Below, piece by piece: positions 3,377 to 50,429 of a stretch of DNA of 64,000 nucleotides (positions are counted from its first letter, which is position 1; every line of letters begins with the position of its first letter). Below the pieces are notes generated by a model. The model was not told the DNA's origin. It worked only from the letters and a program-made list of their open reading frames with translations, and ran no database searches. Source of the DNA: Candidatus Kaiserbacteria bacterium. GTDB taxonomy: Bacteria; Patescibacteriota; Minisyncoccia; Phycocordibacterales; UBA918. The translations under genes and the position numbers were made by a program. The stretch is taken from NCBI GenBank assembly GCA_016204695.1, contig JACQKD010000014.1, positions 18,562-82,561 on the forward strand, read 5' to 3'.

Positions 3377-3377
3377 A

Positions 3378-34418: not shown

Positions 34419-36083
34419 ATGACGGCACGACAGCATACGGAAGAACGGAACACCACACGAAAATACATCTTTGTCGTCGGCGGCGTAATGTCATCGGTCG
34501 GCAAAGGCATCGCGACGGCCTCCATCGGCAAAATACTGCAAGCGCGCGGTTACAAAGTCTCGCTCGTGAAGTGCGACATGTACGTCAACATCGACGCGGG
34601 CACCATCCGCCCGACCGAGCACGGCGAGGTGTTCGTCGGTGAAGACGGCATCGAAGCCGACCAAGACCTCGGCAACTACGAGCGCTTCACCGACCAGACC
34701 TCGACCGCCCTCCATTACCTCACCACCGGACAGGTCTATGCCGAGGTCATCAAGCGCGAGCGCAACTTGGAATACGGCGGCGAGGACGTGGAAGTCGTCC
34801 CGGATATCCCGAACGAAATCATCCGCCGTATCAAGCTCGCGGGAGAGACGGACCAGAGCGACTTCGTCGTCATCGAAATCGGCGGCACTGTCGGCGAATA
34901 TCAAAACGTGCTGTTTCTCGAAGCCGGACGCATGATGAAGGCGCGCCACAAAAACGACGTGCTCTTTGTCCTCGTGAGCTACCTGCCCATTCCGGGAAAA
35001 GTCGGCGAAATGAAAACCAAGCCGACCCAATACGCCGCACGGACGCTCAACGCAACCGGCATCCAAGCTGACTTCATCCTCTGCCGTTCCGAACACATGA
35101 TCGATGAGAAACGCCGCGAGAAGCTCGCGCTCTTTTGCAACATCGAACCGGAGGATGCCATCGCCGCGCCGGATGTGGACTCCATCTATGACGTGCCGGT
35201 CAACTTCGCGCGCGATGGACTCGACCTGCGCATCTTGCAAAAGTTCGGGCTTGAACCGAAAGCGGACAATCTCGGGCAGTGGTCTGCGCTCGCGGAAAAA
35301 ATCAAAACCCTTACGGATACCGTCTCCATCGGGGTGGTCGGCAAATATTTCAATACCGGTGACTTTACGCTCGCCGATTCATACATTTCCGTCCTTGAGT
35401 CCATCAAGCACGCGGCGTGGGAAGCAGGCGTCAAACCGAAAATCTCGTGGCTCGATGCCGAAGCATACGAAAAAGACCCGTCAAAACTCTCCGAGCTTTC
35501 CGGCTACGACGGCATCATCGTCCCGGGCGGCTTCGGCTCGCGCGGAGTGGAAGGCAAAATCCTCGCCGTCGAATACGTCCGCAAAAACAACATCCCCTAC
35601 CTCGGCCTCTGTTACGGCCTCCAGATGGCCGTCATAGAATACGCCCGCAATGTCTGCGGGCTCGCGGATGCCAATACCACGGAAGTAAACAAAGACACCC
35701 CGCACCCCGTCATCGACGTCATGGTCGACCAGAAAGCAAATATCGCAGAAAAGAAAATGGGCGGCACCATGCGTCTCGGCGCCTATCCCTGTGAGCTCAA
35801 AGACGGCACCATAAGTAGGGAAGCGTATGGAAAGAAAAACATCAGTGAACGGCACCGCCATCGCTATGAAGTCAACAACGAATACCGCGCACAACTCGAA
35901 GAGGCAGGTCTCGTCATAGCCGGCCGCAACCCCGACCGCGACCTCGTTGAAATCATCGAGCTTCCGCAGTCGAAACACCCGTTCTTCGTCGGCGTCCAAT
36001 TCCACCCCGAATTCCTCTCCCGCCCCCTTGCTCCGCACCCCCTCTTTATGGCATTTATTAAGGCGGCGACAAAGACAAAGTAA
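34419..36083 (+). CDS. pyrG: CTP synthase
   Basis: N-terminal synthetase motifs (KYIFVVGGVMSSVGKGIATASIG), C-terminal class I glutamine amidotransferase (GLCYGLQMAVIEYARNV...HRHRYEVN). Confidence 0.95.
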   Translation: MTARQHTEERNTTRKYIFVVGGVMSSVGKGIATASIGKILQARGYKVSLVKCDMYVNIDAGTIRPTEHGEVFVGEDGIEADQDLGNYERFTDQTSTALHYLTTGQVYAEVIKRERNLEYGGEDVEVVPDIPNEIIRRIKLAGETDQSDFVVIEIGGTVGEYQNVLFLEAGRMMKARHKNDVLFVLVSYLPIPGKVGEMKTKPTQYAARTLNATGIQADFILCRSEHMIDEKRREKLALFCNIEPEDAIAAPDVDSIYDVPVNFARDGLDLRILQKFGLEPKADNLGQWSALAEKIKTLTDTVSIGVVGKYFNTGDFTLADSYISVLESIKHAAWEAGVKPKISWLDAEAYEKDPSKLSELSGYDGIIVPGGFGSRGVEGKILAVEYVRKNNIPYLGLCYGLQMAVIEYARNVCGLADANTTEVNKDTPHPVIDVMVDQKANIAEKKMGGTMRLGAYPCELKDGTISREAYGKKNISERHRHRYEVNNEYRAQLEEAGLVIAGRNPDRDLVEIIELPQSKHPFFVGVQFHPEFLSRPLAPHPLFMAFIKAATKTK

Positions 36084-36390: not shown

Positions 36391-36423
36391 GGACGCATCA
36401 AATGATGCGTCCACCTATTTTTT
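36391..36423 (+). terminator. rho-independent terminator abutting tRNA-Gln
   Basis: ggacgcatc-aaat-gatgcgtcc followed by acctatttttt. Confidence 0.5.
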
Positions 36424-36493
36424 GCCGGGTCGTCTAATGGTAGGACTCGGGACTTTGAATCCCGCTATCTTGGTTCGAATCCAAGCCCGGCAG
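36423..36493 (+). tRNA. tRNA-Gln (anticodon UUG)
   Basis: Acceptor tgccggg/cccggca with U1-A72 (typical for bacterial tRNA-Gln), anticodon stem cggga/tcccg with loop ctTTGaa, T arm cttgg-ttcgaat-ccaag, discriminator G. Confidence 0.8.
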
Positions 36494-36707
36494 CAATATG
36501 TATTGGAGCTTTGCCGTAGTAAATAATAGATTAGCGGAAGTATTCTTTGATAAGACCAAAAAGGGTACGACAAAAATCCACGGACATTGCTATGTCAAGA
36601 AGGAAGAATATAAAACCAAAAAAGAACAATTGTGGATCAAGAAAGACTGCGAACGAATCCGTCTTGTATACAGAAACAAAAAGTATCGTAAAATAGGATA
36701 GCTCGCT

Positions 36708-37361
36708 ATGAAATTACTTCTCACCTCGTCCGGGTTTACGAATACATCGATAACAAATGCCTTGCGGGAATTACTTGGTAAAGACTTCAAAGACACGAAT
36801 CTTGTATTTATCCCGACCGCCGCCAATGTCGAGACAGGCGGCAAAGAGTGGCTCATCGACGACTTTATCGCGTGCAAAAAACTCGGCTTTAAGGAAATCG
36901 ATATAGTCGACATCGCGGCCGTCCCGCAAGAAGTATGGGAACCTCGGCTCAAGAACGCGGACATCATCATGGTCGGCGGAGGCAACACCTCATACCTCAT
37001 GGGACAGATAAAAAAGTCAGGGCTGGGAACCCTTCTGCCCGACCTGCTGGAAACACGCATCTATGTGGGCATAAGCGCCGGCAGTATGGTAACTGCGCCG
37101 AAGTTGCAAGAAAAAGAAATGCAAATGCTCTATAACGAACCGATTTTTGATGACGAAACCAATGAGGGTTTGGGCTTTGTTGATTTTCTCGTCGTGCCGC
37201 ATATGAATTCGCCGCACTTCCCTCGTGTCGCCGAACAGATAGACGAAGTTGCCAAAGACACCGATGTCCCGTTCTATGCGCTGGACGACCAATCGGCCGT
37301 GAAAGTTACTGACGGAAATGTCGAAGTCGTTTCAGAGGGGAAGTGGAAGCGATTTAATTAG
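36708..37361 (+). CDS. peptidase S51 (peptidase E/cyanophycinase-like) family protein
   Basis: GISAGSMV nucleophile motif (G-x-S-A-G-S); type-1 glutamine amidotransferase-like fold pattern. Confidence 0.6.
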   Translation: MKLLLTSSGFTNTSITNALRELLGKDFKDTNLVFIPTAANVETGGKEWLIDDFIACKKLGFKEIDIVDIAAVPQEVWEPRLKNADIIMVGGGNTSYLMGQIKKSGLGTLLPDLLETRIYVGISAGSMVTAPKLQEKEMQMLYNEPIFDDETNEGLGFVDFLVVPHMNSPHFPRVAEQIDEVAKDTDVPFYALDDQSAVKVTDGNVEVVSEGKWKRFN

Positions 37362-37563
37362 TTCCTTTGATTGACCACTTTTGCTGATGCGGTAGCCCAG
37401 TTTTTGATTCCTGTGATCGCACTCACTTTCGGTACATCTACTCCCTGTGGCGTCATCCAAGTCTTCGTCCTCGTTTCCGCCATATCAGCCCTCCTCTTCC
37501 GCCAGACAAGTCAAACGGGTACAATGCCCAGCATTATGTGGCCAGACCAATGCAGAGCAACAA

Positions 37564-38010
37564 ATGGCGACTTGTAAAGATCTAAAAACAATTGCAAAAG
37601 CAAGACTGCGGAGTGCAGTAATTCTAATCGATGCTGGCGACTGGGATGGAGCGGCTTACATGATGGGTTACGTCCTAGAATGCGCTCTTAAGGCTGCTGT
37701 ATGCAAGTCGCTACGGTTGACAGACTACCCTCAAAATCGTAAAACTGATACCCATTTTCTCACACATAACTTCGATCAGCTCGTTGTTTTATCAGGGGTA
37801 TCGGACTTATTTGATTCCAACGCAAGCTCAAGTGTGTTCCAAAATTGGTCCGACTTTACAAAGGAGTTTTTGGGTGATTGGCCTGCTATGAGATATAACA
37901 TTCAACACCAACAGACATTTACTGAAATCAAAGTGAGAGACCTGTATACTAACCTTACAGACAAACCAGATGGAATTCTCGCCGTGATAACTAGAAAAAA
38001 ACGATGGTAG
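37564..38010 (+). CDS. HEPN domain protein
   Basis: Helical pattern AKARLRSAVILIDAGDWDGAAYMMGYVLECALKAAVCK and an R-x4-H motif (AMRYNIQHQQ); AT-rich locus; start at internal ATG of ORF 37447. Confidence 0.5.
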   Translation: MATCKDLKTIAKARLRSAVILIDAGDWDGAAYMMGYVLECALKAAVCKSLRLTDYPQNRKTDTHFLTHNFDQLVVLSGVSDLFDSNASSSVFQNWSDFTKEFLGDWPAMRYNIQHQQTFTEIKVRDLYTNLTDKPDGILAVITRKKRW

Positions 38011-38393
38011 AAAAATTTGAAAAAATATTAGAGAAAATCAAATCCGAGAAGGGGCCTCTGACCTTCTTTGGTATATTCAAGATGGATGAATTAACAGATA
38101 AATGGTCCGTCCTATTGTCCGCTACATGGGCATCGGAACACAGCAAAAGAATAGAGGCATTTGAATATCTTTTAGATCTCTTAAGAAAAAATTTGACCTC
38201 GGAGGAAGCACGTTCAATTGCTCGCATCGGAGTATTCTCAAACGATGAACATTTGATCGATTTACTATTGAATTTCCAAAAAGGTTCAAGGATCAGAGAA
38301 CAAAGTATCAACGGAAACATCATACACGATGGCTATGTGTTAGAAGCCAATCGAATAGTCGAATCAGAAATTGTCCCTATACCCGATTATTAG
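38004..38393 (+). CDS. hypothetical protein, translationally coupled partner of the HEPN gene
   Basis: ATG overlaps the HEPN stop (atggtag); 129 aa. There is no nucleotidyltransferase (MNT) GS-x9-D-x-D motif, so it is not a canonical HEPN-MNT partner. Confidence 0.45.
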   Translation: MVEKFEKILEKIKSEKGPLTFFGIFKMDELTDKWSVLLSATWASEHSKRIEAFEYLLDLLRKNLTSEEARSIARIGVFSNDEHLIDLLLNFQKGSRIREQSINGNIIHDGYVLEANRIVESEIVPIPDY

Positions 38394-38412
38394 TTTTATC
38401 ATTACTTCTTAT

Positions 38413-38796
38413 ATGCAAGAACAACTGGATACTGCGGGGGAGTTTTCGCTGGTGAGGCGGGCGAGGAGTTTTGTGCATGCGGGGAGGGGCATTTGGGTAT
38501 TTTTGAAAACCACGCCGAATGCATGGATTGAAATCACCATATTCATCGGAGCGGTAGCGGCCGGTATCGTCGTCGGCCTCACCTATATCGAATGGATCCT
38601 GCTCGTATTTGCCGCAGGATTCGTTCTCGTGTCCGAGGCCTTCAATACGGCCATAGAAATAGACATCAACCTCACCTCTCCCGAATACCATCCCTATGCC
38701 AAAGATACGAAAGATGTCGCCGCAGGCGCGGTGCTCATCGCCTCCATCACCGCCCTCATCATCGGTCTCGCCATCTTCGGCCACCATCTGCTATAG
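38413..38796 (+). CDS. dgkA: diacylglycerol kinase family protein (DgkA/undecaprenol kinase-like)
   Basis: VSEAFNTAIEIDIN and YHPYAKDTKDVAAGAVLIA match prokaryotic DAGK motifs; three TM helices. Confidence 0.75.
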   Translation: MQEQLDTAGEFSLVRRARSFVHAGRGIWVFLKTTPNAWIEITIFIGAVAAGIVVGLTYIEWILLVFAAGFVLVSEAFNTAIEIDINLTSPEYHPYAKDTKDVAAGAVLIASITALIIGLAIFGHHLL

Positions 38797-38798
38797 TT
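38767..38798. repeat. direct repeat copy 1 (3' end of dgkA), also found at 41468-41499
   Basis: ctcgccatcttcggccaccatctgctatagtt versus ctcgccatcttcggccgtcatctgctatagtt (30/32 identical). Confidence 0.6.
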
Positions 38799-38811
38799 CC
38801 ATATCCACCGC

Positions 38812-39150
38812 ATGCAAAAAGTATTGTCCATATCTCTATATTCGGCCCCGATCATTTTGATGATCGGATTGATCCCTTTGATCCGGGACGACTATGTGCT
38901 CACCGCAGTCTATATAGTGATTATTGCCGTATCTCTCAAATTGATTACGGCGAAACGAAACGACCTTGTTGTCCTCATATTCGGTTTTTTCGCGATGATT
39001 GTCTCCGAATACATCTTCATCAGCACGGGCGCGGAAACATTCGTCAGGAATTCCTTGTTCGGTCTCATGCCCCTTTGGCTACCATTTCTGTGGTCCTATG
39101 GTTTTGTCGCGATAAAGAGGGCGATGGCAGTGCTTGGAACAGACAGGTAA
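38812..39150 (+). CDS. small integral membrane protein (hypothetical)
   Basis: Four predicted TM helices; 112 aa. Confidence 0.45.
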   Translation: MQKVLSISLYSAPIILMIGLIPLIRDDYVLTAVYIVIIAVSLKLITAKRNDLVVLIFGFFAMIVSEYIFISTGAETFVRNSLFGLMPLWLPFLWSYGFVAIKRAMAVLGTDR

Positions 39151-39203
39151 GGCAGAGATATATCAAACCGCATGAAAATCTTCGCTATATAATTCATCCG
39201 TAT

Positions 39204-40208
39204 ATGGAACGACCGCCTGCAATCAGATTTTCAATGTTTGAGGACTTCGCCATACGGACGGAACGGAAGGAGAATCCCCGCACCATGCCGTACGTCCTTT
39301 GTTCCGTATCCGCGTTCAGCGGTCAGCGAGAACGGATAAGTCGCATGCTGAAGGACGATATGGAGCGCCTTTTCCGCGAATCTTCCACACAAAAAGAAGT
39401 GGTGACCGTAGAGCCGGCACGTGAGTTTTTGCAGACCGTGTGGCAAAGAGACAGTTATCTTTATTTTAACGGCGTCTACTTTCCTTGGCGATGGATCGAT
39501 ACAAAAGGCCAGAACCGTCCCGAGCGCGAAGCATATGTGCTAAAGATGATGGGGATGAAAGATAGCGTCTCTCTTGAAAAAGTACTGCCGCGGATACTGA
39601 CTGACAGGGACGAGGGAATGTTTGCCATGGGTGAAGGGGGGCTGTATTTCCCCGATCACGACAATAATACGCTGTTTATTTCTCGAGGAATCGTCGCTGA
39701 AGAAGGTACTCTCTCTGAAGAAGAACTTACTAAACGCCTTACAGATATGCATAAGCACATTTTTGGCGACGACATCGACGTCACGGTATTGCCGCAACCG
39801 GATACGACTCCGCATCTTGATACTCATTTTTCTGTTATTCCTAGGACCAAGATTGCGCTATTTGAAAACGGATACTATGGAAAAGCCGAGGGAGCCGGTG
39901 CGATGGAGACATTGGATCAGCTGGGATACGAAAGCGTTCAGACACCGCCGAGCGTTCTCTCGCGTCCTCTCAATATTTTCTATATGGAAAACGATGCGGG
40001 TACGGTATGTGCGTACGTCTATCCGAGCATCAATGAGTCAGTCCGAGACCTCTTGCACCAGAACAACGTAGAGACATACGATATGTCGCCAGCTCTTGGC
40101 AACATCCTCGACGCACAGGAAGGCGGCCCGCGATGTATCACCAACGAAGTCCACACCAAAGACCCTGCTTTCATCAGGAACCTCGGGTTTAAAGCTCCTT
40201 CCTTATGA
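39204..40208 (+). CDS. amidinotransferase/arginine-deiminase-like (guanidino-group-modifying enzyme superfamily) protein
   Basis: PHLDTHFSVIP (H-L-D-T, as in arginine deiminase) and C-terminal EGGPRCITNEV (catalytic Cys context, as in agmatine deiminase/DDAH). Start at the Met 10 nt downstream of a TATAAT box. Confidence 0.5.
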   Translation: MERPPAIRFSMFEDFAIRTERKENPRTMPYVLCSVSAFSGQRERISRMLKDDMERLFRESSTQKEVVTVEPAREFLQTVWQRDSYLYFNGVYFPWRWIDTKGQNRPEREAYVLKMMGMKDSVSLEKVLPRILTDRDEGMFAMGEGGLYFPDHDNNTLFISRGIVAEEGTLSEEELTKRLTDMHKHIFGDDIDVTVLPQPDTTPHLDTHFSVIPRTKIALFENGYYGKAEGAGAMETLDQLGYESVQTPPSVLSRPLNIFYMENDAGTVCAYVYPSINESVRDLLHQNNVETYDMSPALGNILDAQEGGPRCITNEVHTKDPAFIRNLGFKAPSL

Positions 40209-41191
40209 ATGCGCAAAAATATATCATGTCTCAGCTTCAGGTTCTCAAAGAGCCGATATTGCTTGGGGTAAAACCAAAGAGCGCCGAAGAAATGGCGAAA
40301 GCTATTTTTACGGCTCTTATGTCAAAAAAGTTTAGGAAGTATTCCGTGCCTGAAAAGAATCAGGTAATAATCCGTGGAGCCATAGAGAAAAACATAGCGA
40401 ATGGTGAACCCATAAAGATATCATGGCCATTTGGAGGTTATAAGCTGTGGCGCTTTGAAGAAACTCCGGAGGTAGACTGGGCAGAGTTATTTTCTATCAT
40501 GTATTTTGTTCGTTGGCTCAAGCCGGTGTGTGCCCTCTATCAGAAAGGGGTCGAGTTTACGTTTTGGGTCGACGAGGTAGTGATAGCAAAGATGAATAAT
40601 ATTCCTCAGGCAGACCTGGACGCATACCAAAAAAGTTTTGCCGACCTTTTGAAGTTCGTCAAACCGTGGTTGCCCTCCAACCTAAAATTTGAAGTCTTTC
40701 TTGAGAGGTTACAATACGAAAGTAACGAAGCTTTCGAAAAAGGACTGGCAGTGGAGATGGAAAAACTAAGCAACGCCAGGGCCGCAAGTCCACAACCCCT
40801 GTCTGAGGCAGCCATACGCTCGATTGACATGAATGTAAAATTGACGCCAAGACAGGCCCAAGATCCATTCTGGCGGGAGAAGGTGGATCTTATGCACTAC
40901 GCCTACTACAACTTACAAGAGCAGCAAAACCGTATCCGGCCGTCTTATACAACTGTAAATATAACCGCATTTACGACTTTCTTTGAACCGAACGTGATTC
41001 CTGTCGGCACCACTAAAACCTCCATTGCGAAGTTTTGGGTCGGTGTTGGAGCGCTTCAGAGACGCGGGGATAGATTTATAGAAACTATCTTTTCTCTTTC
41101 ACAAATCGACAAGGCACATGCTGTATGGGAATCTGTGAAGATTGTTGGGTTGCGTGGAAAGAACTTCTCAAAGATTAGAGTCGTCGGGTAA
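40205..41191 (+). CDS. hypothetical protein
   Basis: 328 aa; ATGA overlap with the upstream gene; no recognised motif. Confidence 0.45.
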   Translation: MNAQKYIMSQLQVLKEPILLGVKPKSAEEMAKAIFTALMSKKFRKYSVPEKNQVIIRGAIEKNIANGEPIKISWPFGGYKLWRFEETPEVDWAELFSIMYFVRWLKPVCALYQKGVEFTFWVDEVVIAKMNNIPQADLDAYQKSFADLLKFVKPWLPSNLKFEVFLERLQYESNEAFEKGLAVEMEKLSNARAASPQPLSEAAIRSIDMNVKLTPRQAQDPFWREKVDLMHYAYYNLQEQQNRIRPSYTTVNITAFTTFFEPNVIPVGTTKTSIAKFWVGVGALQRRGDRFIETIFSLSQIDKAHAVWESVKIVGLRGKNFSKIRVVG

Positions 41192-41393
41192 TCCTCAAGG
41201 AACTGAAACTGTCTTGTTTGGCAGGAATCTCATACAGCCATATGGGTTTTGTACGTCCGGGGTTCTGTGACTGAACAAATAGACAGGAGAAGATATCCTG
41301 GATACTTCATCTTGGGAGCGAAAAACAGTGCACTTGATTCCAGAACCAGGATCATTTTCGATAGGAGTTAGGTATACTTATTCCACGACGAAA

Positions 41394-41466
41394 ATGCAGA
41401 AACTGCCCAAGCTGGAGAAGGGGGACAAAGTAGCGATTTTGTCGCCGTCGTTTGCGGCAGGGTCGG
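41394..41466. repeat. diverged duplicate of the 5' end of the LD-carboxypeptidase gene (original at 42594-42666)
   Basis: atgcagaaactgcccaagctggagaagggggacaaagtagcgattttgtcgccgtcgtttgcggca versus atgcggaaactgccaaaactacagaaaggggacaaggtggcgattttgtcgccgtcgtttgcggcg; includes a 26-nt identical core. Confidence 0.6.
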
Positions 41467-41467
41467 C

Positions 41468-41499
41468 CTCGCCATCTTCGGCCGTCATCTGCTATAGTT
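41468..41499. repeat. direct repeat copy 2 (duplicate of the dgkA 3' end)
   Basis: See copy 1 at 38767-38798; immediately follows the ldcA 5' duplicate. Confidence 0.6.
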
Positions 41500-41507
41500 T
41501 GTCCAAT

Positions 41508-42146
41508 ATGCGAAAGCTTGTCGTACCACTGTATCTGCAAGCACCGAAATCAGTGGATTGCGGACCGGTATGTGTCCGAATGGTGTTATCCTATTTTGGC
41601 ATCCGCCGAAGTTTGGCCTTCTTGCAGAAAAAACTCCATTACGACAAAACAGGGACATCGTCGTACGACAACGGCGCATTACTCCTCGATGAAGGATTGC
41701 GGGTAACAGCCGTCACCGCCAACCCGATGCTTTTCCCGCCCGACATTGTCCGCTCGCTTAAGAATAAGAAGCACCTCCAAGAGTTGATCACTAAAAAGAG
41801 CAAAACGACCCCTAAATATAAAAAATGTTTGAAGACTTTAGAGAAATTCCTGGAAAAAGGAGGTAATTTAATAATTGAAATCCCGAACGCGAAACACGTA
41901 CGCGCCGCGATCGACGCAAAGCGACCGATTATCGCATTACTCTACGGAAAAGCAATGGGGAGCAACGAAGGAACGTTCCACTTTGTTGTGGTTACGGGAT
42001 ATGACGGCAAACACGTCTTCATCAACAACCCGTATCCGAAGTCAAAACGGCAGTGGAAATGCCCGATGGATACTTTTCTCTATGCGGTCCATTCCTCAAG
42101 TGTGGGATATATAGACAATGCAACGTTGTTAATTATCTCTAAATAA
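41508..42146 (+). CDS. peptidase C39-like domain protein
   Basis: DCGPVCVRMVLSYFG (catalytic Cys context of C39-like/BtrH-type domains) and a downstream FHFVVVTGYDGKHVFINNP His region. Start at internal Met, because the upstream part of ORF 41328 is a chimeric ldcA-5'/dgkA-3' duplicate. Confidence 0.5.
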   Translation: MRKLVVPLYLQAPKSVDCGPVCVRMVLSYFGIRRSLAFLQKKLHYDKTGTSSYDNGALLLDEGLRVTAVTANPMLFPPDIVRSLKNKKHLQELITKKSKTTPKYKKCLKTLEKFLEKGGNLIIEIPNAKHVRAAIDAKRPIIALLYGKAMGSNEGTFHFVVVTGYDGKHVFINNPYPKSKRQWKCPMDTFLYAVHSSSVGYIDNATLLIISK

Positions 42147-42173
42147 GCTCCAGATACTATTCAAGATATAGCT

Positions 42174-42569
42174 ATGAAAACAGAAACAAACGGATTTTCT
42201 TTCATTTTGAAACCGTCGACAATCGTCGAGGCGGGAATCGGGGTATTCGCACTGCATGATATCGCCAAGGGCACCCATATGGCATTGTTTCTGAAAGACT
42301 TTGAGGAAATGATGTATAAGCCGGAGGATGTGCCGGAAGAATTGCAAGGATATTGTCTTGACCTGCCCGATGGGAAGCTTCAATGTCCAAAATATTTCAA
42401 CCGAATGGACATCGGGAACTATCTAAATCACTCGGAAAATGCCAATATACGGTGGGAGGGAGAGAAGGGATATTTTGCCGCCCGCGACATCCGGAAAGGC
42501 GAAGAAATCCTCGCCGACTACCGCCAGCTCGGTGAGCCGGAAGACACCTGGGCGGAGTATTATAGATAG
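42174..42569 (+). CDS. SET domain protein (putative lysine methyltransferase)
   Basis: NHSENANIRWEGE (equivalent of the NHSCxPN motif) and YFAARDIRKGEEILADY (the ELxxDY motif); ~130-aa minimal bacterial SET. Confidence 0.65.
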   Translation: MKTETNGFSFILKPSTIVEAGIGVFALHDIAKGTHMALFLKDFEEMMYKPEDVPEELQGYCLDLPDGKLQCPKYFNRMDIGNYLNHSENANIRWEGEKGYFAARDIRKGEEILADYRQLGEPEDTWAEYYR

Positions 42570-42584
42570 GGAATAATTCACTCC

Positions 42585-43625
42585 ATGACAGAAATGCGGA
42601 AACTGCCAAAACTACAGAAAGGGGACAAGGTGGCGATTTTGTCGCCGTCGTTTGCGGCGCCGGGAAAATGGCCGCAGGTGTATGAGCTCGGACTCACGCG
42701 AGTGCGGGAAGTATTCGGCTTGGACCCGGTCGAATTCCCGACAACCAAAAAGATTGGTGCGTCGGGGGAGGAACGGGCGAAGGACATCATCGACGCGTTC
42801 ACGAATCCCGAGATTAAAGCGGTAATTACCACGCTTGGCGGCAACGACCAAGTCACCTACATCAAGAATCTTCCCGCAGAGCCATTTGTCGAGAACCCGA
42901 AACCGTTTTTCGGGTACAGCGACAATTCGCATTTCTGCAACTTTCTTTTCCTCAATGGCATTCCGTCATACTATGGCGCTTCACTTTTTACGCAGTTTGC
43001 AATACAGGGTGAGATGGATGCCTATACCGTCGAATACATCAACCATGCACTTTTTGACGAGGATGAATTCGAAATCAGACCGTCGGAAGAGTACAACGAC
43101 AAGGGTCTTGATTGGAACAATACTGACCTTCTCGGGACCCGCCGCACCTACTGGCTGAACGAGGGGTGGCATTGGGACGGTGAACAGAGCGCGGAGGGAC
43201 TCCTGTGGGGAGGATGCATCGAGTCGGTCGATGAGATGCTCCGCCACGGCGTGCCTATTCCCACGCTCGAACAATTCACGGACATCGTACTCATGCTTGA
43301 GTCGTCAGAAGAAATACCGCCCGCACAGTATGTATCCCGGATACTTCGGGCGCTCGGCGAGCGGGGGATACTGAAGCAGGTAAAAGGCGTGCTTGTCGGC
43401 CGGCCGAAAGCATGGGAATTCGACAAGCAGAATACCGATGATGAAAAGAAAGCGTATCGCGCGGAACAGCGGGAAATTGTCCTCAAAACAGTCCGTGCGT
43501 ACAATGTCAATATCCCCATCGTCCAAAATCTCGACTTCGGCCACACCGACCCGCAACTCCCGATGCCCTACGGCGGAAAGGTGCGTATAGACTCCGAAGC
43601 CAAGAAGATTTTTGCTGACTTTTAA
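42585..43625 (+). CDS. ldcA: LD-carboxypeptidase (peptidase S66) family protein
   Basis: GDKVAILSPSF N-terminal nucleophile region and overall S66 pattern; start may be the Met at 42594. Confidence 0.8.
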   Translation: MTEMRKLPKLQKGDKVAILSPSFAAPGKWPQVYELGLTRVREVFGLDPVEFPTTKKIGASGEERAKDIIDAFTNPEIKAVITTLGGNDQVTYIKNLPAEPFVENPKPFFGYSDNSHFCNFLFLNGIPSYYGASLFTQFAIQGEMDAYTVEYINHALFDEDEFEIRPSEEYNDKGLDWNNTDLLGTRRTYWLNEGWHWDGEQSAEGLLWGGCIESVDEMLRHGVPIPTLEQFTDIVLMLESSEEIPPAQYVSRILRALGERGILKQVKGVLVGRPKAWEFDKQNTDDEKKAYRAEQREIVLKTVRAYNVNIPIVQNLDFGHTDPQLPMPYGGKVRIDSEAKKIFADF

Positions 43626-43628
43626 ATT

Positions 43629-44135
43629 ATGTTAGAGACTATTCATGATTTTAAAGAAGATGCAAAAAGGTACATCGACCTTTTTAATGCGTTCACGGGA
43701 AAGCATAACCTGACCGATAAAGCACAAGCGGACCATATCTGCTACAAGTGCGGTTCGAAAGAATCATTCGAACAACTTCGAGTTTTGTTCGAATCAAACA
43801 GTAGCTGGATATATCAGTCAATAATCTCGAACCGCCGCATCGCATATATAAAGCTTGCGGAAGGTATCGAATCCGCATTGGGCACAATCCATTTCCTCGA
43901 GCTGTCGGACCAGAAACCGGATGGTTCACAACATGACGGTTTTGACCACATAGAGGCCTATCCCACAGCATATTCCTACGAAGAAATGGTGCGAGAATTG
44001 GAATCCTCGGAGAAGGTACTGAAGATAGAACGCCCGCACCATACCACACATGACATTGATATCGGCGACAAGTTCTTATTTCGTTGCACCCAGGGTCCCC
44101 TCGTGGAGAAGATTAAAAGTACGGAAATGATTTGA
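43629..44135 (+). CDS. hypothetical protein (possibly VOC/glyoxalase-fold)
   Basis: DHICYKC...FLEL...DHIEAY spacing is reminiscent of VOC metal ligands; weak. Confidence 0.3.
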   Translation: MLETIHDFKEDAKRYIDLFNAFTGKHNLTDKAQADHICYKCGSKESFEQLRVLFESNSSWIYQSIISNRRIAYIKLAEGIESALGTIHFLELSDQKPDGSQHDGFDHIEAYPTAYSYEEMVRELESSEKVLKIERPHHTTHDIDIGDKFLFRCTQGPLVEKIKSTEMI

Positions 44136-44145
44136 TAATGACAAT

Positions 44146-44694
44146 ATGAGCACACACATCACATATTTCGTCCATGGTACGACGACGGATAACGAACAAC
44201 ATATCTCTTCGGGATGGAAGGATGTGGAGCTTTCGGAGCTTGGTATCAAGTAGGGAAAAGAGCTCGGCGAGACCACCGCAGACAAGCGCTTCGATGTGGT
44301 ATTTTGCTCCGACCTCAGGCGGGCCGTTGGTTCGGCACAACTCGCATGGGGTGACAAATATCCGATCATTCCGGACGAACGTCTGCGCGAGTGCAACTAT
44401 GGCGACCTCAACGGTGCATCTTCGGATATTGTTGAACCGATGCAAGAAGAGGAATGCATCGCAAAGCCGTTTCCGAACGGAGAAAGTTATGGAGACGTAA
44501 AAGCTCGGATTGCGGACTTCCTGGAGTTTCTAAAAACAAACTATGACGGAAAGCATGTCGCGATTGTAGGACATAAGGCACCCCAACTTTCTCTCGACGT
44601 CCTCTTGAAGAGTAAAACATGGACGCAAGCTTTGGCCGAAGATTGGCGAAAGACGAAGGTATGGAAACCTGGCTGGGACTATCTTCTTGAGTGA
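44146..44694 (+). pseudogene. histidine phosphatase family gene interrupted by an in-frame TAG at 44251-44253 (pseudogene, sequencing error or readthrough)
   Basis: MSTHITYFVHGTTTDNEQ (HG motif) ... GIK-TAG-GKELGETTADKRFDVVFCSDLRRAVGSAQ... and C-terminal VAIVGHKA, all in one frame; the ORF track reports only the part after the stop (44296..44694). Confidence 0.45.
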
Positions 44695-44697
44695 GAT

Positions 44698-45657
44698 ATG
44701 ACAACCAAACAGAAAATCCTCCAGTCTCTTATACCGCTTATTGAGGACCTGCAATTCGTGATAATCGACGACAAACGTGTACAAGAGGTCGCGAAGGAGT
44801 TGCTTTCGGCTGATCTTCCTCCCTGGGACAACGACCTTCAACTGCTCGGAACGCCCGAAGAAACAGCGCAATACTATTTCTTTGTTGACAGTATCAACTT
44901 CTGTTTTTGGGCACCAAAAGGCGAAACCCGATGGGAATATGAGATTAACGGCGCATGGGTCGGCGGGTACTATGCCTATTCCCGAGCTATCAAGGATGCG
45001 TTCCTTAAGAGCCGTCATTTTTTCGATGCAAAGTATCTGCAAACTATCCCGGAAGATGTTTTTCGTGCGATCTTTGAAAGCGGAAGAAACAAGCTTTTGC
45101 TTCTTGAGGAGCGACTGCAAATCATACGAGAAAATTTCTCTATTTTGTCGGATCAGTTTGATGGTCAGGCAATCAACCTCATCGAGCAAACGGGGAAAGA
45201 CGCGGACAAAATCGTCGAGCTTCTCACCGCGTCGTTCCCCTCATTTCGAGACAGTGCTCTTTGGGAAGACAGCACGCTCTATTTTCTCAAGCGGGCGCAG
45301 ATTTTTGCATCAGATGTCTCATATACCGGCCTGCCGGAACTCGCCATCGCCAATCTCGACCATCTCACCGTATTTGCCGACTATAAGTTGCCGCAGATAC
45401 TTGAATCATTCGGCGTGCTGACATACGCACCCGAATTGGATGCCGATATACGAAACGAGGTGCTTATCCCCCCGGGATCACGTAAAGAAATAGAGATCCG
45501 CGCATGCGCGATCACAGCGGTCGAACGAATACGCGACGAGATGGAGCGGCTCGGCAGAGCGCTTTCAAGCAACGAGCTCGATTGGATACTCTGGGTCAAG
45601 GCAAAGCAGACGACATTCATAAAACCTCACCACAAGACCCTCACAACGTTTTATTAA
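44698..45657 (+). CDS. queuosine salvage family protein (DUF2419/Qng1-like)
   Basis: NFCFW and VFADYKLPQIL motifs, which I recall as characteristic of DUF2419 proteins. Confidence 0.5.
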   Translation: MTTKQKILQSLIPLIEDLQFVIIDDKRVQEVAKELLSADLPPWDNDLQLLGTPEETAQYYFFVDSINFCFWAPKGETRWEYEINGAWVGGYYAYSRAIKDAFLKSRHFFDAKYLQTIPEDVFRAIFESGRNKLLLLEERLQIIRENFSILSDQFDGQAINLIEQTGKDADKIVELLTASFPSFRDSALWEDSTLYFLKRAQIFASDVSYTGLPELAIANLDHLTVFADYKLPQILESFGVLTYAPELDADIRNEVLIPPGSRKEIEIRACAITAVERIRDEMERLGRALSSNELDWILWVKAKQTTFIKPHHKTLTTFY

Positions 45658-45673
45658 CGCTTTCCAAGATTAC

Positions 45674-46204
45674 ATGCAACACCACAACACTCTTTTTATC
45701 CTCTGCGGCGAAGCGTTTTCGGGAAAGTCGACTCTCGCCGACCATATCGCCAAGCACTACGGAGCGCATATCGTCGGACGCGACCTGATCTATTTTTCGC
45801 TTGCCGACGCATTGGCTCTCGAAGAGACGCCGGAAGAGGATGATGATGCTTTCTGGAAAAACATGTGGCCGATCGCCATGCAAGGCGTGCGGAATCTTTT
45901 GCTGACAGGCCAGTCGGTGGTATTCGACGACAACTGTCTGCTCTTTCGACAACGTGAAGAATTGCGTGAGATCGCAACCGCCTGCGGCGCGCGGAGTGTC
46001 CTGATCTATCTCAATGTACCCGCGGATATTCTCAAAAAACGAAAAGACGCGAACAAATTGACGCGGGAACGGCATGATGTCCCTTCTGCATGGCTTGCGG
46101 ATGATGCGCGACTTTTCGAGCGACCGGAAGAAACTGAAAAAATTCTGCCGTACACCCCTGACGAACCGGCTGAAATGCTCTGGAAGAGAATTGAGCAGAT
46201 CTGA
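45674..46204 (+). CDS. P-loop NTPase (AAA_33/kinase-like ATP-binding protein)
   Basis: Walker A ILCGEAFSGKSTLA; small size typical of zeta-toxin/PNK-like kinases. Confidence 0.55.
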   Translation: MQHHNTLFILCGEAFSGKSTLADHIAKHYGAHIVGRDLIYFSLADALALEETPEEDDDAFWKNMWPIAMQGVRNLLLTGQSVVFDDNCLLFRQREELREIATACGARSVLIYLNVPADILKKRKDANKLTRERHDVPSAWLADDARLFERPEETEKILPYTPDEPAEMLWKRIEQI

Positions 46205-46283
46205 TCACAAACCGCTTATTCTTCCCCGGATGGCTTTTCTGACTGCGCCGAAAGTGTGCTTGTGAGAAGAAAAGTCGCGTTGC

Positions 46284-46296
46284 TATACTCTTAGTC
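46284..46296 (+). promoter_or_regulatory. -10 box TATACT 7 nt upstream of the Nudix ATG (leaderless pattern)
   Basis: gcTATACT cttagtc ATG. Confidence 0.3.
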
Positions 46297-46746
46297 ATGC
46301 CGGAACACTTCAAATATATTGCCGCAAGTTACTTACTGCTTATCAATGATGGGAATATTTTGTTGCAGCGCAGATACAATACCGGCTTCATGGATGGTTG
46401 GTATGGACTGCCTTCCGGACATCTCGACGGAGGAGAAACCGCACGAGAAGGAGGGTCGCGTGAATTCAAAGAAGAGCTCGGTATCCGTATTGACCCCGAA
46501 GACTTGAGCATGGTGCATGTGATGCATCGCAAAGCGCGCAACGATGAACGAATCGACTTCTTCATGACCACGAAACGGTACGAGGGAACGATAGAGAATC
46601 GGGAGCCGCACAAATGCGATGATCTCCGCTGGTGTCCTCCGGATGCGCTTCCTGAAAACACTATTGATTATATCGTCACAGCGATCAAGGCGTTTCGAGA
46701 CGGGGAATTCTATTCTGAGTTTGGGTGGTCCCGGCACACAGGGTAA
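46297..46746 (+). CDS. Nudix hydrolase
   Basis: Nudix box GHLDGGETAREGGSREFKEELGI. Confidence 0.75.
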   Translation: MPEHFKYIAASYLLLINDGNILLQRRYNTGFMDGWYGLPSGHLDGGETAREGGSREFKEELGIRIDPEDLSMVHVMHRKARNDERIDFFMTTKRYEGTIENREPHKCDDLRWCPPDALPENTIDYIVTAIKAFRDGEFYSEFGWSRHTG

Positions 46747-46797
46747 AAACAGGAACGCGATGGTCACTATCCGCGCATAGACCTAATTCAGCTACAG

Positions 46798-47142
46798 TTG
46801 TTTGGGGAACAAGGAATGATACTTTATACTTTACTTATGGAACGTAAAACTCTCAAGGAACTCCAGAGGTTCTACGCGGAGAAGTCAAAAGAACGGGGCT
46901 TCGATAAGGAAACAGCACAAGATGCGCTCTTACTCATGGTAGAAGAAGTAGGCGAACTCGCTCGGGCGGTCAGAAAACAAGCGAGCATAAAAATAGACGA
47001 TAAGACAAAAGTATACGCTGTTGAGGAGGAGCTTGCCGATATTTTCAACTATCTGTTGCATATTTCAAACATATTGGGATTAGATCTGGAAGAATCGTTT
47101 TGGAAAAAAGAAGAAGAGAATAAAAAGAGAAAGTGGACATAA
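46798..47142 (+). CDS. MazG nucleotide pyrophosphohydrolase domain protein
   Basis: VEEVGELARAVRK and EELADIFNYLLHISNILGLDLEESF (MazG EEXX(E/D) motifs). An alternative start is 46816. Confidence 0.65.
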   Translation: MFGEQGMILYTLLMERKTLKELQRFYAEKSKERGFDKETAQDALLLMVEEVGELARAVRKQASIKIDDKTKVYAVEEELADIFNYLLHISNILGLDLEESFWKKEEENKKRKWT

Positions 47143-47158
47143 GTCCCGGACGACGGGT

Positions 47159-47968
47159 ATGTTTAAGAAAATCTTATACGGCGTCGGCGGGGTAGTTATC
47201 CTTATAGTCATATTCAGCACGATTGGATACAAAGACAACAAGACAGGTCCTAAAGACATTTTTAGTTTACAAGAAGCTATCGTAACAGGACCTTTCTCCA
47301 CGAACACACCAGTATCGGGAGAACAACCGGTACCAGGGCAAGAAGAAAACGTCACATATTATCGAGTAATCAAAGTGGTTGACGGAGATACGATTGCTGT
47401 TGATATGGACGGGAAAACGGAAACGATACGACTGATCGGGATCAACACGCCGGAGACGGTAGACCCGCGAAAGCAGGTGGAATGTTTCGGTCGCGAAGCG
47501 TCGGACAAAGCAAAAGAATTACTCTCCGGCAAACGCGTACGAGTAGAGACGGACGCCACGCAAGGAGAGCGGGACAAATACGGCCGCCTCTTGGCGTATA
47601 TCTATCTCGAAGACGGACTCTTTTTCAACAAGCACATGATCGAGGAAGGATACGCATACGAGTATACGTACAATCTGCCATACAAATACCAAGCAGAGTT
47701 CAGAGCGGCACAACAGTCCGCGCAAGCCGGCGAAAAAGGTCTGTGGACTAAAGGAGTATGTGACAGCAGATCAACAGCGACGCCGTCTCCGTCAATTCCG
47801 GCATCTGTTTCCTCCGACTATTCATGTGCGGAAGATACCTACAATTGCGGCGGCTTCAAAACGCATGCCGAGGCTCAATCCGCATACGAGGCCTGCGGCG
47901 GGACGGGAAACGACATCCATCACCTCGATCAAGATGGGGATGGGTTGGCCTGCGAAAGCTTACCTTAA
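47159..47968 (+). CDS. nuc: secreted thermonuclease (SNase-like) with C-terminal Excalibur calcium-binding domain
   Basis: N-terminal TM/signal; VVDGDTIAV...IRLIGINTPE...YGRLLAYIY (staphylococcal nuclease fold motifs); C-terminal HLDQDGDGLACE (Excalibur DxDxDGxxCE). Confidence 0.8.
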   Translation: MFKKILYGVGGVVILIVIFSTIGYKDNKTGPKDIFSLQEAIVTGPFSTNTPVSGEQPVPGQEENVTYYRVIKVVDGDTIAVDMDGKTETIRLIGINTPETVDPRKQVECFGREASDKAKELLSGKRVRVETDATQGERDKYGRLLAYIYLEDGLFFNKHMIEEGYAYEYTYNLPYKYQAEFRAAQQSAQAGEKGLWTKGVCDSRSTATPSPSIPASVSSDYSCAEDTYNCGGFKTHAEAQSAYEACGGTGNDIHHLDQDGDGLACESLP

Positions 47969-47995
47969 GCGTCCGTTCGTCGATTTCTACCGAAG

Positions 47996-48043
47996 CAAAA
48001 AGCGCCGCCGCCGGGGCAAAGCCCCGGCGGCGGCGCTTTTTGC
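47996..48043. terminator. strong rho-independent terminator (17-bp GC stem, bidirectional)
   Basis: aaaaagcgccgccgccggggc-aaa-gccccggcggcggcgctttttgc. Confidence 0.65.
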
Positions 48044-48114
48044 TTCTCACAATCCCAAATGGTACTCTTATCCGCAGAAACTGGAGAATACTGTTTATCC
48101 GTATATCGTTACAT

Positions 48115-49284
48115 ATGATTAATTCAAAAAAGATTATCTGGGGTGTAGTAGTGCTCATCGCACTTGTTGCCATTGCTTTTTTCTCAATGAAAAAGAGTCC
48201 GGAAGCGCCTGACACCGCTACCAAAAACGAGGATACGGGTCCCATAAAAGTCGGCGTCATACTGCCGCTGACCGGAGATGGCGCAGTATACGGCGAGCCC
48301 GCGAGAAACATCTACCAGATGGCGGTCGTGGAGATCAATGCCGCCGACGGTGTTGGAGGCAGGATGCTTGAGCTCGTCGTCGAAGACAGCAAGTGCACCG
48401 GGGAGACGGCAGTAAGCGCCGCACAGAAACTTATAAACGTCGACAAGGTAAAAGTAATTATTGGCGGATTCTGCAGTAGCGAGTCACTTGCCGCAACACC
48501 GGTGGCTGCAAACGCCAAAGTGGTGCTCTTCTCGCCCGGCTCGTCGAGTCCGGATCTCACGGGTGCAAGTCCGTTTTTCTTCCGCAATTATCCGAGCGAC
48601 GCATCACAGGGTACTGTACTCGCGCGAATCGCATACAACGACAAAAAGTATAAGACCGTGGCATTTATTCAGGAGCAAACAGACTATGCGGCCGGAGTAT
48701 ACAAGGCCTTTAATGAAGAATTCACCAAGCTCGGCGGTACGGTCACAAACGAGAGTTTCCCGACGAAGAACACCGATTTTCGAGCGATTGTTACGAAGAT
48801 AAAAGACGCGAAGCCCGATGCGGTCTTTATTGACACGCAGACTCCGGCAGTCGGAACCCGGATCATGCAACAATCAGAACAGCTTCAATATAAACCCGCC
48901 TTAATCGTCAACGATGTTATTTCAGGCGACCCCGATACCGTCACGCAAAATGCCGAGTTTCTGGAAGGGGCACTCACGGCGGAGTTTGGCATTGATCCGC
49001 AAAATCAGAAATTCCAGCACTTGATAACGGCATACAAGGAAAAGTACGGGCAGGAGCCTCCGTACCAAAGCTATGCGCAGACCGAATACGACGCGGTCTT
49101 CATGGTCCGCGACGCGCTCCTCGCAAACGGCGAGGATGGCGAGAAGATCGCCAAGTGGTCGCGCACAGTGAAAGACTGGGAGGGCGCTTCGGGAAAGATC
49201 ACCATTCTCCCCAGCGGCGACCGCGACGGCGGCCACTCGCCGAGAGTGATTAAGAGTGGTAAAGTGGCGCCGTATACCAAATAA
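48115..49284 (+). CDS. branched-chain amino acid ABC transporter substrate-binding protein (LivJ/K-like, PBP type 1)
   Basis: Signal anchor; IKVGVILPLTGDGAVYGE...; periplasmic binding protein family 1 pattern; start at internal ATG (MINSKK). Confidence 0.85.
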   Translation: MINSKKIIWGVVVLIALVAIAFFSMKKSPEAPDTATKNEDTGPIKVGVILPLTGDGAVYGEPARNIYQMAVVEINAADGVGGRMLELVVEDSKCTGETAVSAAQKLINVDKVKVIIGGFCSSESLAATPVAANAKVVLFSPGSSSPDLTGASPFFFRNYPSDASQGTVLARIAYNDKKYKTVAFIQEQTDYAAGVYKAFNEEFTKLGGTVTNESFPTKNTDFRAIVTKIKDAKPDAVFIDTQTPAVGTRIMQQSEQLQYKPALIVNDVISGDPDTVTQNAEFLEGALTAEFGIDPQNQKFQHLITAYKEKYGQEPPYQSYAQTEYDAVFMVRDALLANGEDGEKIAKWSRTVKDWEGASGKITILPSGDRDGGHSPRVIKSGKVAPYTK

Positions 49285-49295
49285 CCAACCGGATT

Positions 49296-50429
49296 ATGAA
49301 CAACACAGGCAAATGGGTGGGAGGGGTGGTAGTGGTCATCGCCCTTATCGCGATCGTCGTATTCGCGATGCGGAGCGGCAAGAGCGATTCGACCGATACG
49401 AACGCGACAAGCACGGAAAAGAGCACGATAAAAATCGGACTTTCGTTACCGCTCACCGGCGACCTCGCCTTCATCGGCGAAACCGATCGCAATGCCGCAC
49501 AGCTTGCGCTTGAGGAGGTCAATAAACAGGAGGGGCTTAAGCATAACTATGAGCTCGTGTTCGAAGACGACTCGTTCAATGCGGCGAAAGCGGCGAGTGT
49601 CATAAAAAAGTTTACGAGCATAGACAAAGTTGATGCAGTCATCAGCATTGGCTCAACGGCAGGGAATGTCGTTGCGCCCGTTGCCGAAACCAATCGCATT
49701 CCACACATCGGGGCGGGTGCTTCTGATTCGACTATCGCCAAGGGCGATTACAATTTCATTCACTGGACGCGACCACAGGAGGAAGCGGACGCGATGCTCA
49801 AAGAACTCCAAAAACGAAAAATAACAAAAGTCGCGGCCCTGGTAGCTAATCAGCAAGGCCTCCAGGCAATGAATACAGAACTCAAAAATAAAGCCGGGGC
49901 CGTTGGCATTACTATTACCGATGAGACATTCAATCTTGGACAGACCGATTTCCGCACAACCATCTCAAAGATTGAAAAGGAAAAACCGGAAATATACCTT
50001 CTGGGAGCATTTGACCCTGAAGTCGGCATCATCGCAAAACAAATCCGTGAGCTCGGTATCAAAACACCGCTGACTTCTATTGAATCGTTCGCGCTCACCG
50101 CCGACTTGAAACCGTTTGAGGGACAGTGGTTCGTCGATGCGGCCGTTCCGACAAGCCAATTCGGCGGCACATACCAACAAAAGTATGGCAAAGAACCCGG
50201 GCCTGCGGCGGCAAATACCTACGACGCGATCCATCTCTTGGTGAAAGCGTTTGAAGCAGTGCCGGGAGACGGAAAGCCGGCGAGTGACCAAGTTGCCAAA
50301 GCGCTTGGCGGGACACAGGGATACAGTGGGGCGCTTGGCCCGCTGTCGGTCAACTCTGATGGGATATTCATCTCACAGGCGGCAATAAAAATCGTTAAGG
50401 ATGGAAAAGCGGTAGCGGTGCAAGAATAG
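49296..50429 (+). CDS. branched-chain amino acid ABC transporter substrate-binding protein (paralog 2)
   Basis: IKIGLSLPLTGDLAFIGE...; same family. Confidence 0.85.
   Translation: MNNTGKWVGGVVVVIALIAIVVFAMRSGKSDSTDTNATSTEKSTIKIGLSLPLTGDLAFIGETDRNAAQLALEEVNKQEGLKHNYELVFEDDSFNAAKAASVIKKFTSIDKVDAVISIGSTAGNVVAPVAETNRIPHIGAGASDSTIAKGDYNFIHWTRPQEEADAMLKELQKRKITKVAALVANQQGLQAMNTELKNKAGAVGITITDETFNLGQTDFRTTISKIEKEKPEIYLLGAFDPEVGIIAKQIRELGIKTPLTSIESFALTADLKPFEGQWFVDAAVPTSQFGGTYQQKYGKEPGPAAANTYDAIHLLVKAFEAVPGDGKPASDQVAKALGGTQGYSGALGPLSVNSDGIFISQAAIKIVKDGKAVAVQE

Follow-up and report, generated by a model that had tools for sequence, protein, structure and literature searches.

A putative stand-alone minimal SET-domain methyltransferase in Candidatus Kaiserbacteria, encoded between duplicated ends of its flanking genes

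What does a gene for a SET-domain protein do in a Candidatus Kaiserbacteria bacterium, where it lies between a peptidase gene and a carboxypeptidase gene and is accompanied by direct repeats? The stretch of DNA that we analyzed, here called the window, comprises 64,000 nucleotides (nt) of contig JACQKD010000014.1 (assembly GCA_016204695.1, positions 18,562 to 82,561 of the forward strand), and the gene in question is an open reading frame (ORF) of 131 amino acids (aa), hereafter the SET gene. An earlier reading made from the letters alone (the sequence-only reading) had described it as a minimal SET protein within an inserted cassette. Our analysis indicates that the ORF probably encodes an intact, competent and stand-alone minimal SET methyltransferase, most likely of protein lysines, whose family is patchy, accessory and without partner genes, and that what had looked like the bounds of a cassette are duplicated ends of the flanking genes, which probably arose by recombination.

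The identification as a minimal SET protein held. The match to the Pfam SET profile (PF00856) is far beyond what chance would give: it scores 44.2 bits where the gathering cutoff is 22.4, has an E-value of 2.8e-11 and pairs aa 21-116 with positions 1-104 of the 105 in the profile. The two motifs first quoted for the protein are also present, aa 85-91 (nt 42426-42446) reading NHSENAN and aa 111-116 (nt 42504-42521) EILADY. The catalytic Tyr and Asn positions, whose absence had been named as the finding that would speak against a SET protein, are occupied by Tyr and by Asn/His, and these are invariant across the family. In an alignment of 40 homologs, the conserved residues cover the four canonical SET motifs: the GxG motif that binds S-adenosylmethionine (SAM; G21-I-G23, both Gly at least 90% conserved), the Tyr of the insert region (Y60, likewise at least 90%), the NHS/CxxPN (NHSxxxN) motif, whose Asn-His pair contacts SAM in SET enzymes (N85-H86-S-E-N-A-N91, with N85, H86 and N91 invariant), and the ELxF/YDY (ExxxxY) motif (G109-E-E111-I-L-A-D-Y116, with E111 and the catalytic-type Tyr116 invariant). 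Other invariant residues of the same alignment include S9, F10, C61, C71, P72, F75, G81, N82, Y83, L119 and E121. HMMER alignments place N85-H86 on the NH dipeptide and Y116 on the catalytic Tyr of EHMT2 ('DYG') and of Schizosaccharomyces pombe Set7 ('SYGD').

The product ends only 15 aa past Tyr116, in a family-specific tail marked by L119, E121, P122 and Y129. It has no Zn-binding CxCxxxxC post-SET cluster and no pre-SET cluster, its sole Cys residues being C61 and C71 of the insert, and because these Zn clusters are missing, a SUV39-type enzyme is excluded. The N-terminus, MKTETNGFSFILKPS, shows no hydrophobic signal-like segment. An identical protein (P0001) from the same organism is already present at NCBI under the name SET domain-containing: the domain-level annotation is public and correct, and it is the subfamily itself that is new and uncharacterised.

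The predicted fold agrees with this assignment. SET enzymes have a beta-fold of three small sheets with a C-terminal pseudoknot, and at the level of the overall fold the model matches them clearly. An AlphaFold2 model built from the 40-homolog alignment reached a mean pLDDT of 91.6 and a pTM of 0.82, and a Foldseek search of the PDB returned 274 matches at E<=0.001, of which all 50 listed are SET or PR domains. Heading these are vSET (3kma, E 6.3e-7), Set7 (5h6z), SET7/9, SETD8, MLL3 and PRDM9, the first five with a Foldseek probability of 1.00. By every sequence and fold criterion that was tested, the product is thus predicted to be a member of the SET-domain methyltransferases; its predicted fold is intact, and the residues of its SAM-binding and catalytic motifs are all under strong purifying selection.

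To judge from sequence and model, the window protein would be closest to vSET in architecture and to S. pombe Set7 in profile similarity. vSET (A612L of Paramecium bursaria chlorella virus 1), which tri-methylates eukaryotic histone H3 at K27 (PMC7019647), is likewise a single domain of ~120 aa without pre-SET or post-SET regions, carries the same set of motifs and is the best structural match (TM-score 0.69, target-normalised; 24% identity over 121 columns). It differs in being viral, in having a target in eukaryotic chromatin, of which the organism of the window has none, and in being undetectable by sequence search from the window protein, which for its part carries two invariant Cys (C61, C71-P72) in an insert peculiar to its family and, at the C-terminus, a conserved LGEPE...YY tail. 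Set7 is the best profile match among solved structures (E 5e-4, aa 18-118) and the second-best match in fold, and it too is a small SET core that lacks a Cys-rich post-SET region, but it is an enzyme that methylates histones in a eukaryote, its crystallised chain has 169 aa, and the identity is only ~20%.

A word-indexed search of 5.8 billion proteins recovered 168 relatives, nearly all of them single-domain proteins of 129-138 aa that are 60-73% identical, and an exhaustive HMMER search of 1.84 billion cluster representatives (clusters at 50% identity) yielded 1284 matches at E<=1e-3, of which 277 reach E<=1e-10 and 11 reach E<=1e-30; these counts point to a compact subfamily among some hundreds of clusters that hold small SET proteins of prokaryotes. 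The statement that SET proteins are uncommon in bacteria was therefore too strong: this family alone accounts for 277 clusters at E<=1e-10, and SET genes have been noted in free-living and environmental bacteria (reviewed in PMC3980110). A survey of one genome per GTDB species confirmed 43 SET loci, which is an undercount because the search patterns were strict. At 55-67% identity to the window protein are homologs from Nomura-, Adler- and Moraniibacteria, Minisyncoccia and metagenome-assembled genomes labelled generically as Patescibacteria; the group at 36-48% includes Yanofsky-, Wildermuth-, Azam- and Taylorbacteria, Peribacteria, Babeliales, Myxococcota, Acidobacteriota and Bacteroidota. 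Nomurabacteria fall in both (L019, L020 and L022 at 63-67%, L051 at 44%), and Kaiserbacteria are also among the genome records that carry the family. It is, in sum, a highly conserved yet patchy accessory family, found mainly in Patescibacteria (class Paceibacteria and relatives).

A few relatives depart from the single-domain form. There are tandem SET-SET fusions (P0121, P0147), a fusion with a cupin/AraC-binding domain (P0151), another with a GNAT domain (P0159) and a 2321-aa protein of Lamprobacter sp. (P0153, L047:1395-8360) that combines GNAT, PGA_cap, Mur-ligase and two ATP-grasp modules with a C-terminal SET domain of this family. The gene directly upstream of the last (L047:195-1379) encodes a protein of its own, 394 aa long, whose SET domain has the canonical motif NHSCDPN. 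Viral contigs of IMG/VR, scanned with the family alignment, contained no relative, and a phage origin of the family was rejected on that ground.

The protein would act as a SAM-dependent protein-lysine N-methyltransferase of the minimal SET-core type known from chlorovirus vSET, presumably in the cytoplasm, given its N-terminus without a signal-like segment, and probably as a homodimer. The tandem SET-SET fusions fit such a dimeric working unit, and vSET reportedly works as a homodimer. As its target we favour, by analogy, a basic and abundant protein of the cell itself, one of the nucleoid or of the ribosome: Go1-SET of Methanosarcina mazei methylates the endogenous DNA-binding chromatin protein MC1-alpha (PMC3980110) and, likened to the window protein by its description as a small prokaryotic stand-alone SET protein, offers the best functional analogy for a self-directed target, although it is archaeal. 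A histone-like target near the gene, which the sequence-only reading had raised, did not turn up: tblastn with E. coli HupA, a weak check confined to the 64 kb of the window, found no MC1-like or HU-like gene there.

Several points weigh against an active protein-lysine methyltransferase and have to be set beside those in its favour. The Foldseek TM-scores are moderate (0.55-0.69), and similarity to any solved SET structure is weak, the best profile match having an E-value of 5e-4. As the protein lacks a post-SET region, completion of its lysine channel would fall to the family-specific C-terminus (L119, E121, P122, Y129) or to a second subunit. Two residues before Tyr116, the window protein has Ala114, and its family Ala, Gly or Ser, at a position where many characterised enzymes have Phe or Tyr; on general knowledge of SET enzymes one may speculate that so small a residue would leave a roomy active site, compatible with multiple methylation. 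The Mur-ligase/ATP-grasp, GNAT and cupin fusions of distant relatives leave room for substrates that are not histone-like or not proteins, and a literature search turned up no paper that deals as such with SET proteins of Patescibacteria or of the candidate phyla radiation.

Does the gene upstream of SET, which encodes a C39-like cysteine peptidase, form a functional module with it? The adjacency is real, the peptidase gene lying directly upstream with a gap of 27 nt, and the same order recurs in L004/L005, again 3' of the same FtsX-PyrG-tRNA-Gln backbone, so that one could picture the peptidase processing a precursor that SET methylates, or SET regulating the peptidase. But across ~51 distinct SET contexts (the window, L004, L006, L008, L010, the 43 genome loci and L138-L140), a C39-like gene precedes SET only in these two, and the four contexts of the peptidase's nearest homologs (49-67% identity) are all without SET. 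Between the window and L004/L005, moreover, the peptidases are only 24% identical against 68% for the SET proteins and 55% for PyrG, and the three closest SET relatives examined (70-73%) have no C39-like peptidase, their neighbors being toxin-antitoxin modules, helix-turn-helix (HTH) regulators, an APH kinase, LigT and CutA1. The context survey has thus largely refuted such a module, which we now find scarcely credible, and a meaningful link between the two genes, as proposed at first, is not supported. Nor did any other neighbor recur. We clustered the ORFs within three positions of SET in ~45 loci by BLAST, ran phmmer with the C39-like protein and searched 86 first and 82 second neighbors from the 43 loci against Pfam: these neighbors match 141 and 130 families, respectively, none in more than four loci, and the families that are shared are generic AAA and helicase domains. 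Because nothing recurs, SET has no dedicated partner or adjacent target, and a conserved operon partner or target gene was rejected; the substrate of the enzyme would be a conserved protein encoded by no adjacent gene.

The preferred reading, an active enzyme directed at a protein of its own cell, has also to be weighed against three other functions. That the episymbiont delivers SET into a bacterial or archaeal host, there to methylate nucleoid, histone-like or other proteins much as chlamydial NUE and Legionella RomA/LegAS4 do in eukaryotic hosts and vSET does in Chlorella, seems to us unlikely. The family is indeed found above all in lineages that depend on hosts (Patescibacteria, Babeliales, and Myxococcota that are predatory or social), its accessory and mobile-looking distribution is typical of effectors, and its closest structural match, vSET, is packaged and used against host chromatin (PMC7019647). 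Known secreted effectors such as Chlamydia NUE/cpnSET, Legionella RomA/LegAS4, Burkholderia BtSET and Bacillus anthracis BaSET share the SET domain and come from host-associated bacteria (PMC3980110, PMC2904774), but they are larger or multi-domain proteins (with ankyrin repeats, for example), are secreted by type III or type IV systems and have eukaryotic histones as targets. The window protein has no signal peptide or recognisable secretion signal, and among the neighbors at the 43 loci neither genes for secretion or pili nor genes of any other kind are linked to SET. It reaches only 11.8 bits (E 0.071) with the NCBIfam model for the type IV effector AnkI/LegAS4 (NF043024), whose cutoff is 550, and this, together with its single domain, led us to reject a LegAS4-type effector. 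Conservation at 60-73% across lineages that presumably have different hosts argues, instead, for a universal and probably self target.

A substrate other than a folded protein (a peptide, a poly-amino acid or a compound related to the cell wall) is suggested both by the Lamprobacter fusion with Mur-ligase, PGA_cap and ATP-grasp modules and by the place of SET in the window, between a peptidase and an LD-carboxypeptidase (LDcp) of murein-peptide recycling. We hold it to be very unlikely: the fusion is a single case in a distant relative (42% identity), the adjacency of SET and LDcp is unique to this genome, with 80 LDcp loci lacking SET, and characterised SET enzymes, as is well established, all methylate protein lysines (PMC3980110). 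Least probable of all is that the protein is a catalytically dead SET fold kept as a binding or structural module. The lack of a post-SET region, the small residue at the Phe/Tyr-switch position and a weak echo of a SAF domain (E 0.014) would suit such a role, but every SAM-binding and catalytic motif residue is invariant, which is not expected of a dead enzyme, and vSET is active with the same minimal architecture (PMC7019647).

If SET is an enzyme that needs no neighbor, how did it come to lie where it does? The repeats reported around it are real but derive from the ends of two flanking housekeeping genes, of which they are diverged copies, rather than from the bounds of a cassette, and they come with no integrase or attC-like site. 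Two pairs are involved (Table 1): D1, whose copies (77 nt, 86% identical) are the true 5' end of the LDcp gene and an orphan version of it, and D2, whose copies (37 nt, 92% identical) are the true 3' end of the diacylglycerol kinase (DAGK) gene and an orphan version. The layout is thus DAGK3' - X1 - LDcp5' followed by DAGK3' - (C39-like, SET) - LDcp5'-LDcp, or A-X1-B'-A'-X2-B with two different cargos. Mismatches between the D1 copies fall at the third codon position of the LDcp frame in 7 of 11 cases (6 of 8 when counted from the Met that both copies have), which is what two functional alleles that had diverged would show, and not a duplicate decaying in situ. Recombination between two diverged versions of a variable locus, each with its own cargo, would account for the duplicated gene ends, either by single-crossover integration of a circularised [DAGK3'-cargo-LDcp5'] fragment from a related strain or by unequal exchange between the two versions.

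Over 39976-50569 the window is matched at 100% identity by three independent assemblies, each made from another sequencing run, and one of these spans both D1 copies and D2 copy 2; because these junctions are reproduced and the repeat copies are 86-92% and not 100% identical, the repeats are not an assembly artefact. Between 36.5 and 43.6 kb of the window we found no recombinase, and at the locus no inverted repeat or attC-like element; a second copy of the tRNA-Gln 3' end, sought as an island boundary, was absent from the rest of the window. A mobile cassette or integrative element with its own recombinase and specific ends, be it an integron cassette, a transposon or a tRNA-integrating island, was accordingly rejected.

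The duplicated ends have features of their own. Reading from the ATG of the orphan LDcp start at 41394, one passes the orphan DAGK 3' end and enters the C39-like ORF in frame (41394-42146), and the gene caller applied to the L002 assembly gives a 250-aa product from that ATG, against 212 aa in all homologs of the C39-like protein; the peptidase may thus have captured the translation start of LDcp. Both DAGK 3'-end repeats (38768-38797 and 41469-41498) carry an extended -10-like element, TGCTATAGT, directly upstream of each cargo, as a consensus match only. A second, independent orphan LDcp 5' end occurs in L078 (165-247; 83 nt, 82%), 2.5 kb upstream of the intact gene (2720-3760), and a minus-strand ABC-transporter gene lies between the two.

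Table 1. Features of the window around the SET gene, in order of position; D1 and D2 are the two pairs of repeats
Feature	Position	Strand	Description	Support
FtsE	32731-33456	+		
FtsX	33468-34409	+		
PyrG	34419-36083	+	CTP synthase	
tRNA-Gln(UUG)	36423-36494	+	conserved backbone anchor with FtsE-FtsX-PyrG	Rfam; synteny with L004
Peptidase S51	36708-37361	+		
HEPN-like protein	37447-38010	+	187 aa; overlaps next ORF	Pfam HEPN E 3e-4; weak PADLOC PDC-M28A E 1e-5
129-aa ORF	38004-38393	+		
DAGK	38371-38796	+	diacylglycerol kinase	DAGK_prokar 98 bits
D2 copy 1	38762-38798	+	true 3' end of DAGK including stop codon	
Cargo X1	38799-41381	+	112-aa membrane protein, ~321-aa ORF, 328-aa ORF	
D1 copy 1	41382-41458	+	orphan LDcp 5' end (12 nt upstream and first codons)	
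D2 copy 2	41463-41499	+	orphan DAGK 3' end, 4 nt past D1 copy 1, directly upstream of C39-like gene	
C39-like cysteine peptidase	41508-42146	+	212 aa; stand-alone, without ABC transporter domain	PF13529 46.8 bits; PF03412 45 bits
SET gene	42174-42569	+	131 aa; ATG start; single domain without pre-SET/post-SET	Pfam; NCBI; alignment; AlphaFold2; Foldseek
D1 copy 2	42582-42658	+	true 5' end of LDcp	
LDcp	42585-43625	+	LD-carboxypeptidase (peptidase S66); backbone gene 3' of SET	PF02016 and PF17676
Genes downstream of LDcp			YecM, His_Phos_1, queuosine salvage, AAA_33 kinase, NUDIX, MazG, SNase	

All genes from ~32.7 to 49.3 kb of the window lie on the plus strand. Scans for promoters and terminators stayed at background (15 against 12.0 expected and 12 against 9.1 expected, respectively) and define no transcription unit, and Rfam reported two tRNAs only in the window, with no structured RNA near the SET gene. 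NCBI lists the C39-like protein, from the same organism, as "hypothetical protein HY416_03970". Neither it nor the SET protein had a PADLOC match at E<=0.01, and membership of a defence system was rejected for both. Further upstream, the overlapping pair formed by the HEPN-like gene and the 129-aa ORF (37447-38393) lies in the stretch of lowest G+C content of the region (0.37) and looks like a toxin-antitoxin or defence-type pair. Within X1, the two longer ORFs (39243-41191) are obscure: the ~321-aa product has no Pfam match and the 328-aa product only one below threshold, to DIT1_PvcA (E 0.034). The SNase-like gene is followed closely, at 47992-48046, by an inverted repeat of 26 nt that has no mismatch and a loop of 3 nt (GAAGCAAAAAGCGCCGCCGCCGGGGC and its complement), probably a terminator hairpin.

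Comparison with other genomes shows how much of this arrangement is particular to the lineage. L004 and L005 carry FtsE-FtsX-PyrG-tRNA-Gln as in the window, followed by one gene and then by C39-like and SET genes; L057 has PyrG, tRNA-Gln, 810 nt and LDcp, that is, the backbone without the cargo genes of the window; and in L084, L067 and L087 tRNA-Gln stands 75-217 nt upstream of LDcp. This synteny indicates that the ~6 kb between tRNA-Gln and LDcp are lineage-specific content in a hot spot of the backbone. In a survey of LDcp itself, 537 relatives were confirmed among more than 600 pattern matches and 80 were kept (50-74% identical): apart from tRNA-Gln and PyrG in a few, these 80 loci have no gene order in common with the window, and none contains SET.

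Can the SET gene, then, move by itself? The repeats are not the ends of a mobile element and in this respect give no support to the horizontal acquisition that had been read from them, but lateral mobility of the family is plausible on other grounds, namely its patchy distribution, a conservation that exceeds that of PyrG (68% against 55%, in one genome pair), its changing context and an enrichment next to tRNA genes. A tRNA gene on the same strand ends at most 100 nt upstream of the SET start in 7 of 47 non-redundant loci (L013, L015, L018, L019, L023, L027 and L034, with the tRNA ending 8-66 nt before SET), as against 1 of 70 LDcp loci (Fisher p = 0.007) and 17 of the 1470 ORFs in the fetched loci (1.2%, SET cases included; binomial p about 1e-6), p-values that are optimistic because the loci are not phylogenetically independent. 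The tRNAs are those for Ile, Gln (two loci), Arg, Glu and His (two loci); at further loci a tRNA for Asp, Asn or Gln lies 0.3-1.4 kb away, and L037, L024, L026, L004 and L006, as well as the window with its tRNA-Gln (36423-36494), are further cases of a tRNA association.

In L024 (7166-8491), a HAD-like gene and SET (~1.25 kb) lie between exact 18-nt direct repeats of the tRNA-Asn 3' end (GAATCCTACCCGGGGAGC), a classic integration-type scar without any integrase present. In L004 (3582-3725), the 3' half of a tRNA-Gln(CUG), from the anticodon stem to the acceptor end, is repeated as a 45-nt copy that starts 20 nt beyond the tRNA and is possibly an empty att scar. L021 has a large serine recombinase ahead of SET, and fragments of a serine recombinase lie between tRNA-Gln and SET in L006; among the 168 first and second neighbors of the SET homologs, no recombinase family recurs. 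Related ORFs of ~220-250 aa, each with an N-terminal HTH-like segment and the motif 'LYWAEGSK', lie just upstream of the tRNA that precedes SET in L013 (4611-5270), L015 (7232-7978) and L026 (4331-5017), and this motif is one that we take to recall LAGLIDADG endonucleases.

As a SET protein, the product of this gene is ordinary and already annotated, and it opens no new category. What it brings to light is a tight and strongly conserved family of minimal SET proteins in Patescibacteria, on which our literature searches found nothing, together with a locus that illustrates how strains would swap cargo by way of the conserved gene ends on either side, along a recombination route that we can only infer. 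The changing context and the enrichment right after tRNA genes suggest mobility at the level of the single gene, with no linked recombinase. One may go further and picture SET as a mobile single-gene cargo that lands time and again in recombination hot spots, foremost directly 3' of tRNA genes of many identities, where it may be co-transcribed with the tRNA, and that methylates one highly conserved protein, either a nucleoid or ribosomal protein of its own cell or a protein of the host; we regard this extended version as doubtful, but if true, it would amount to a transferable protein-methylation switch for episymbionts. Since the family is conserved beyond the level of PyrG in the one genome pair compared, its substrate should be identifiable, and might show that a core protein of these reduced cells is methylated on lysine.

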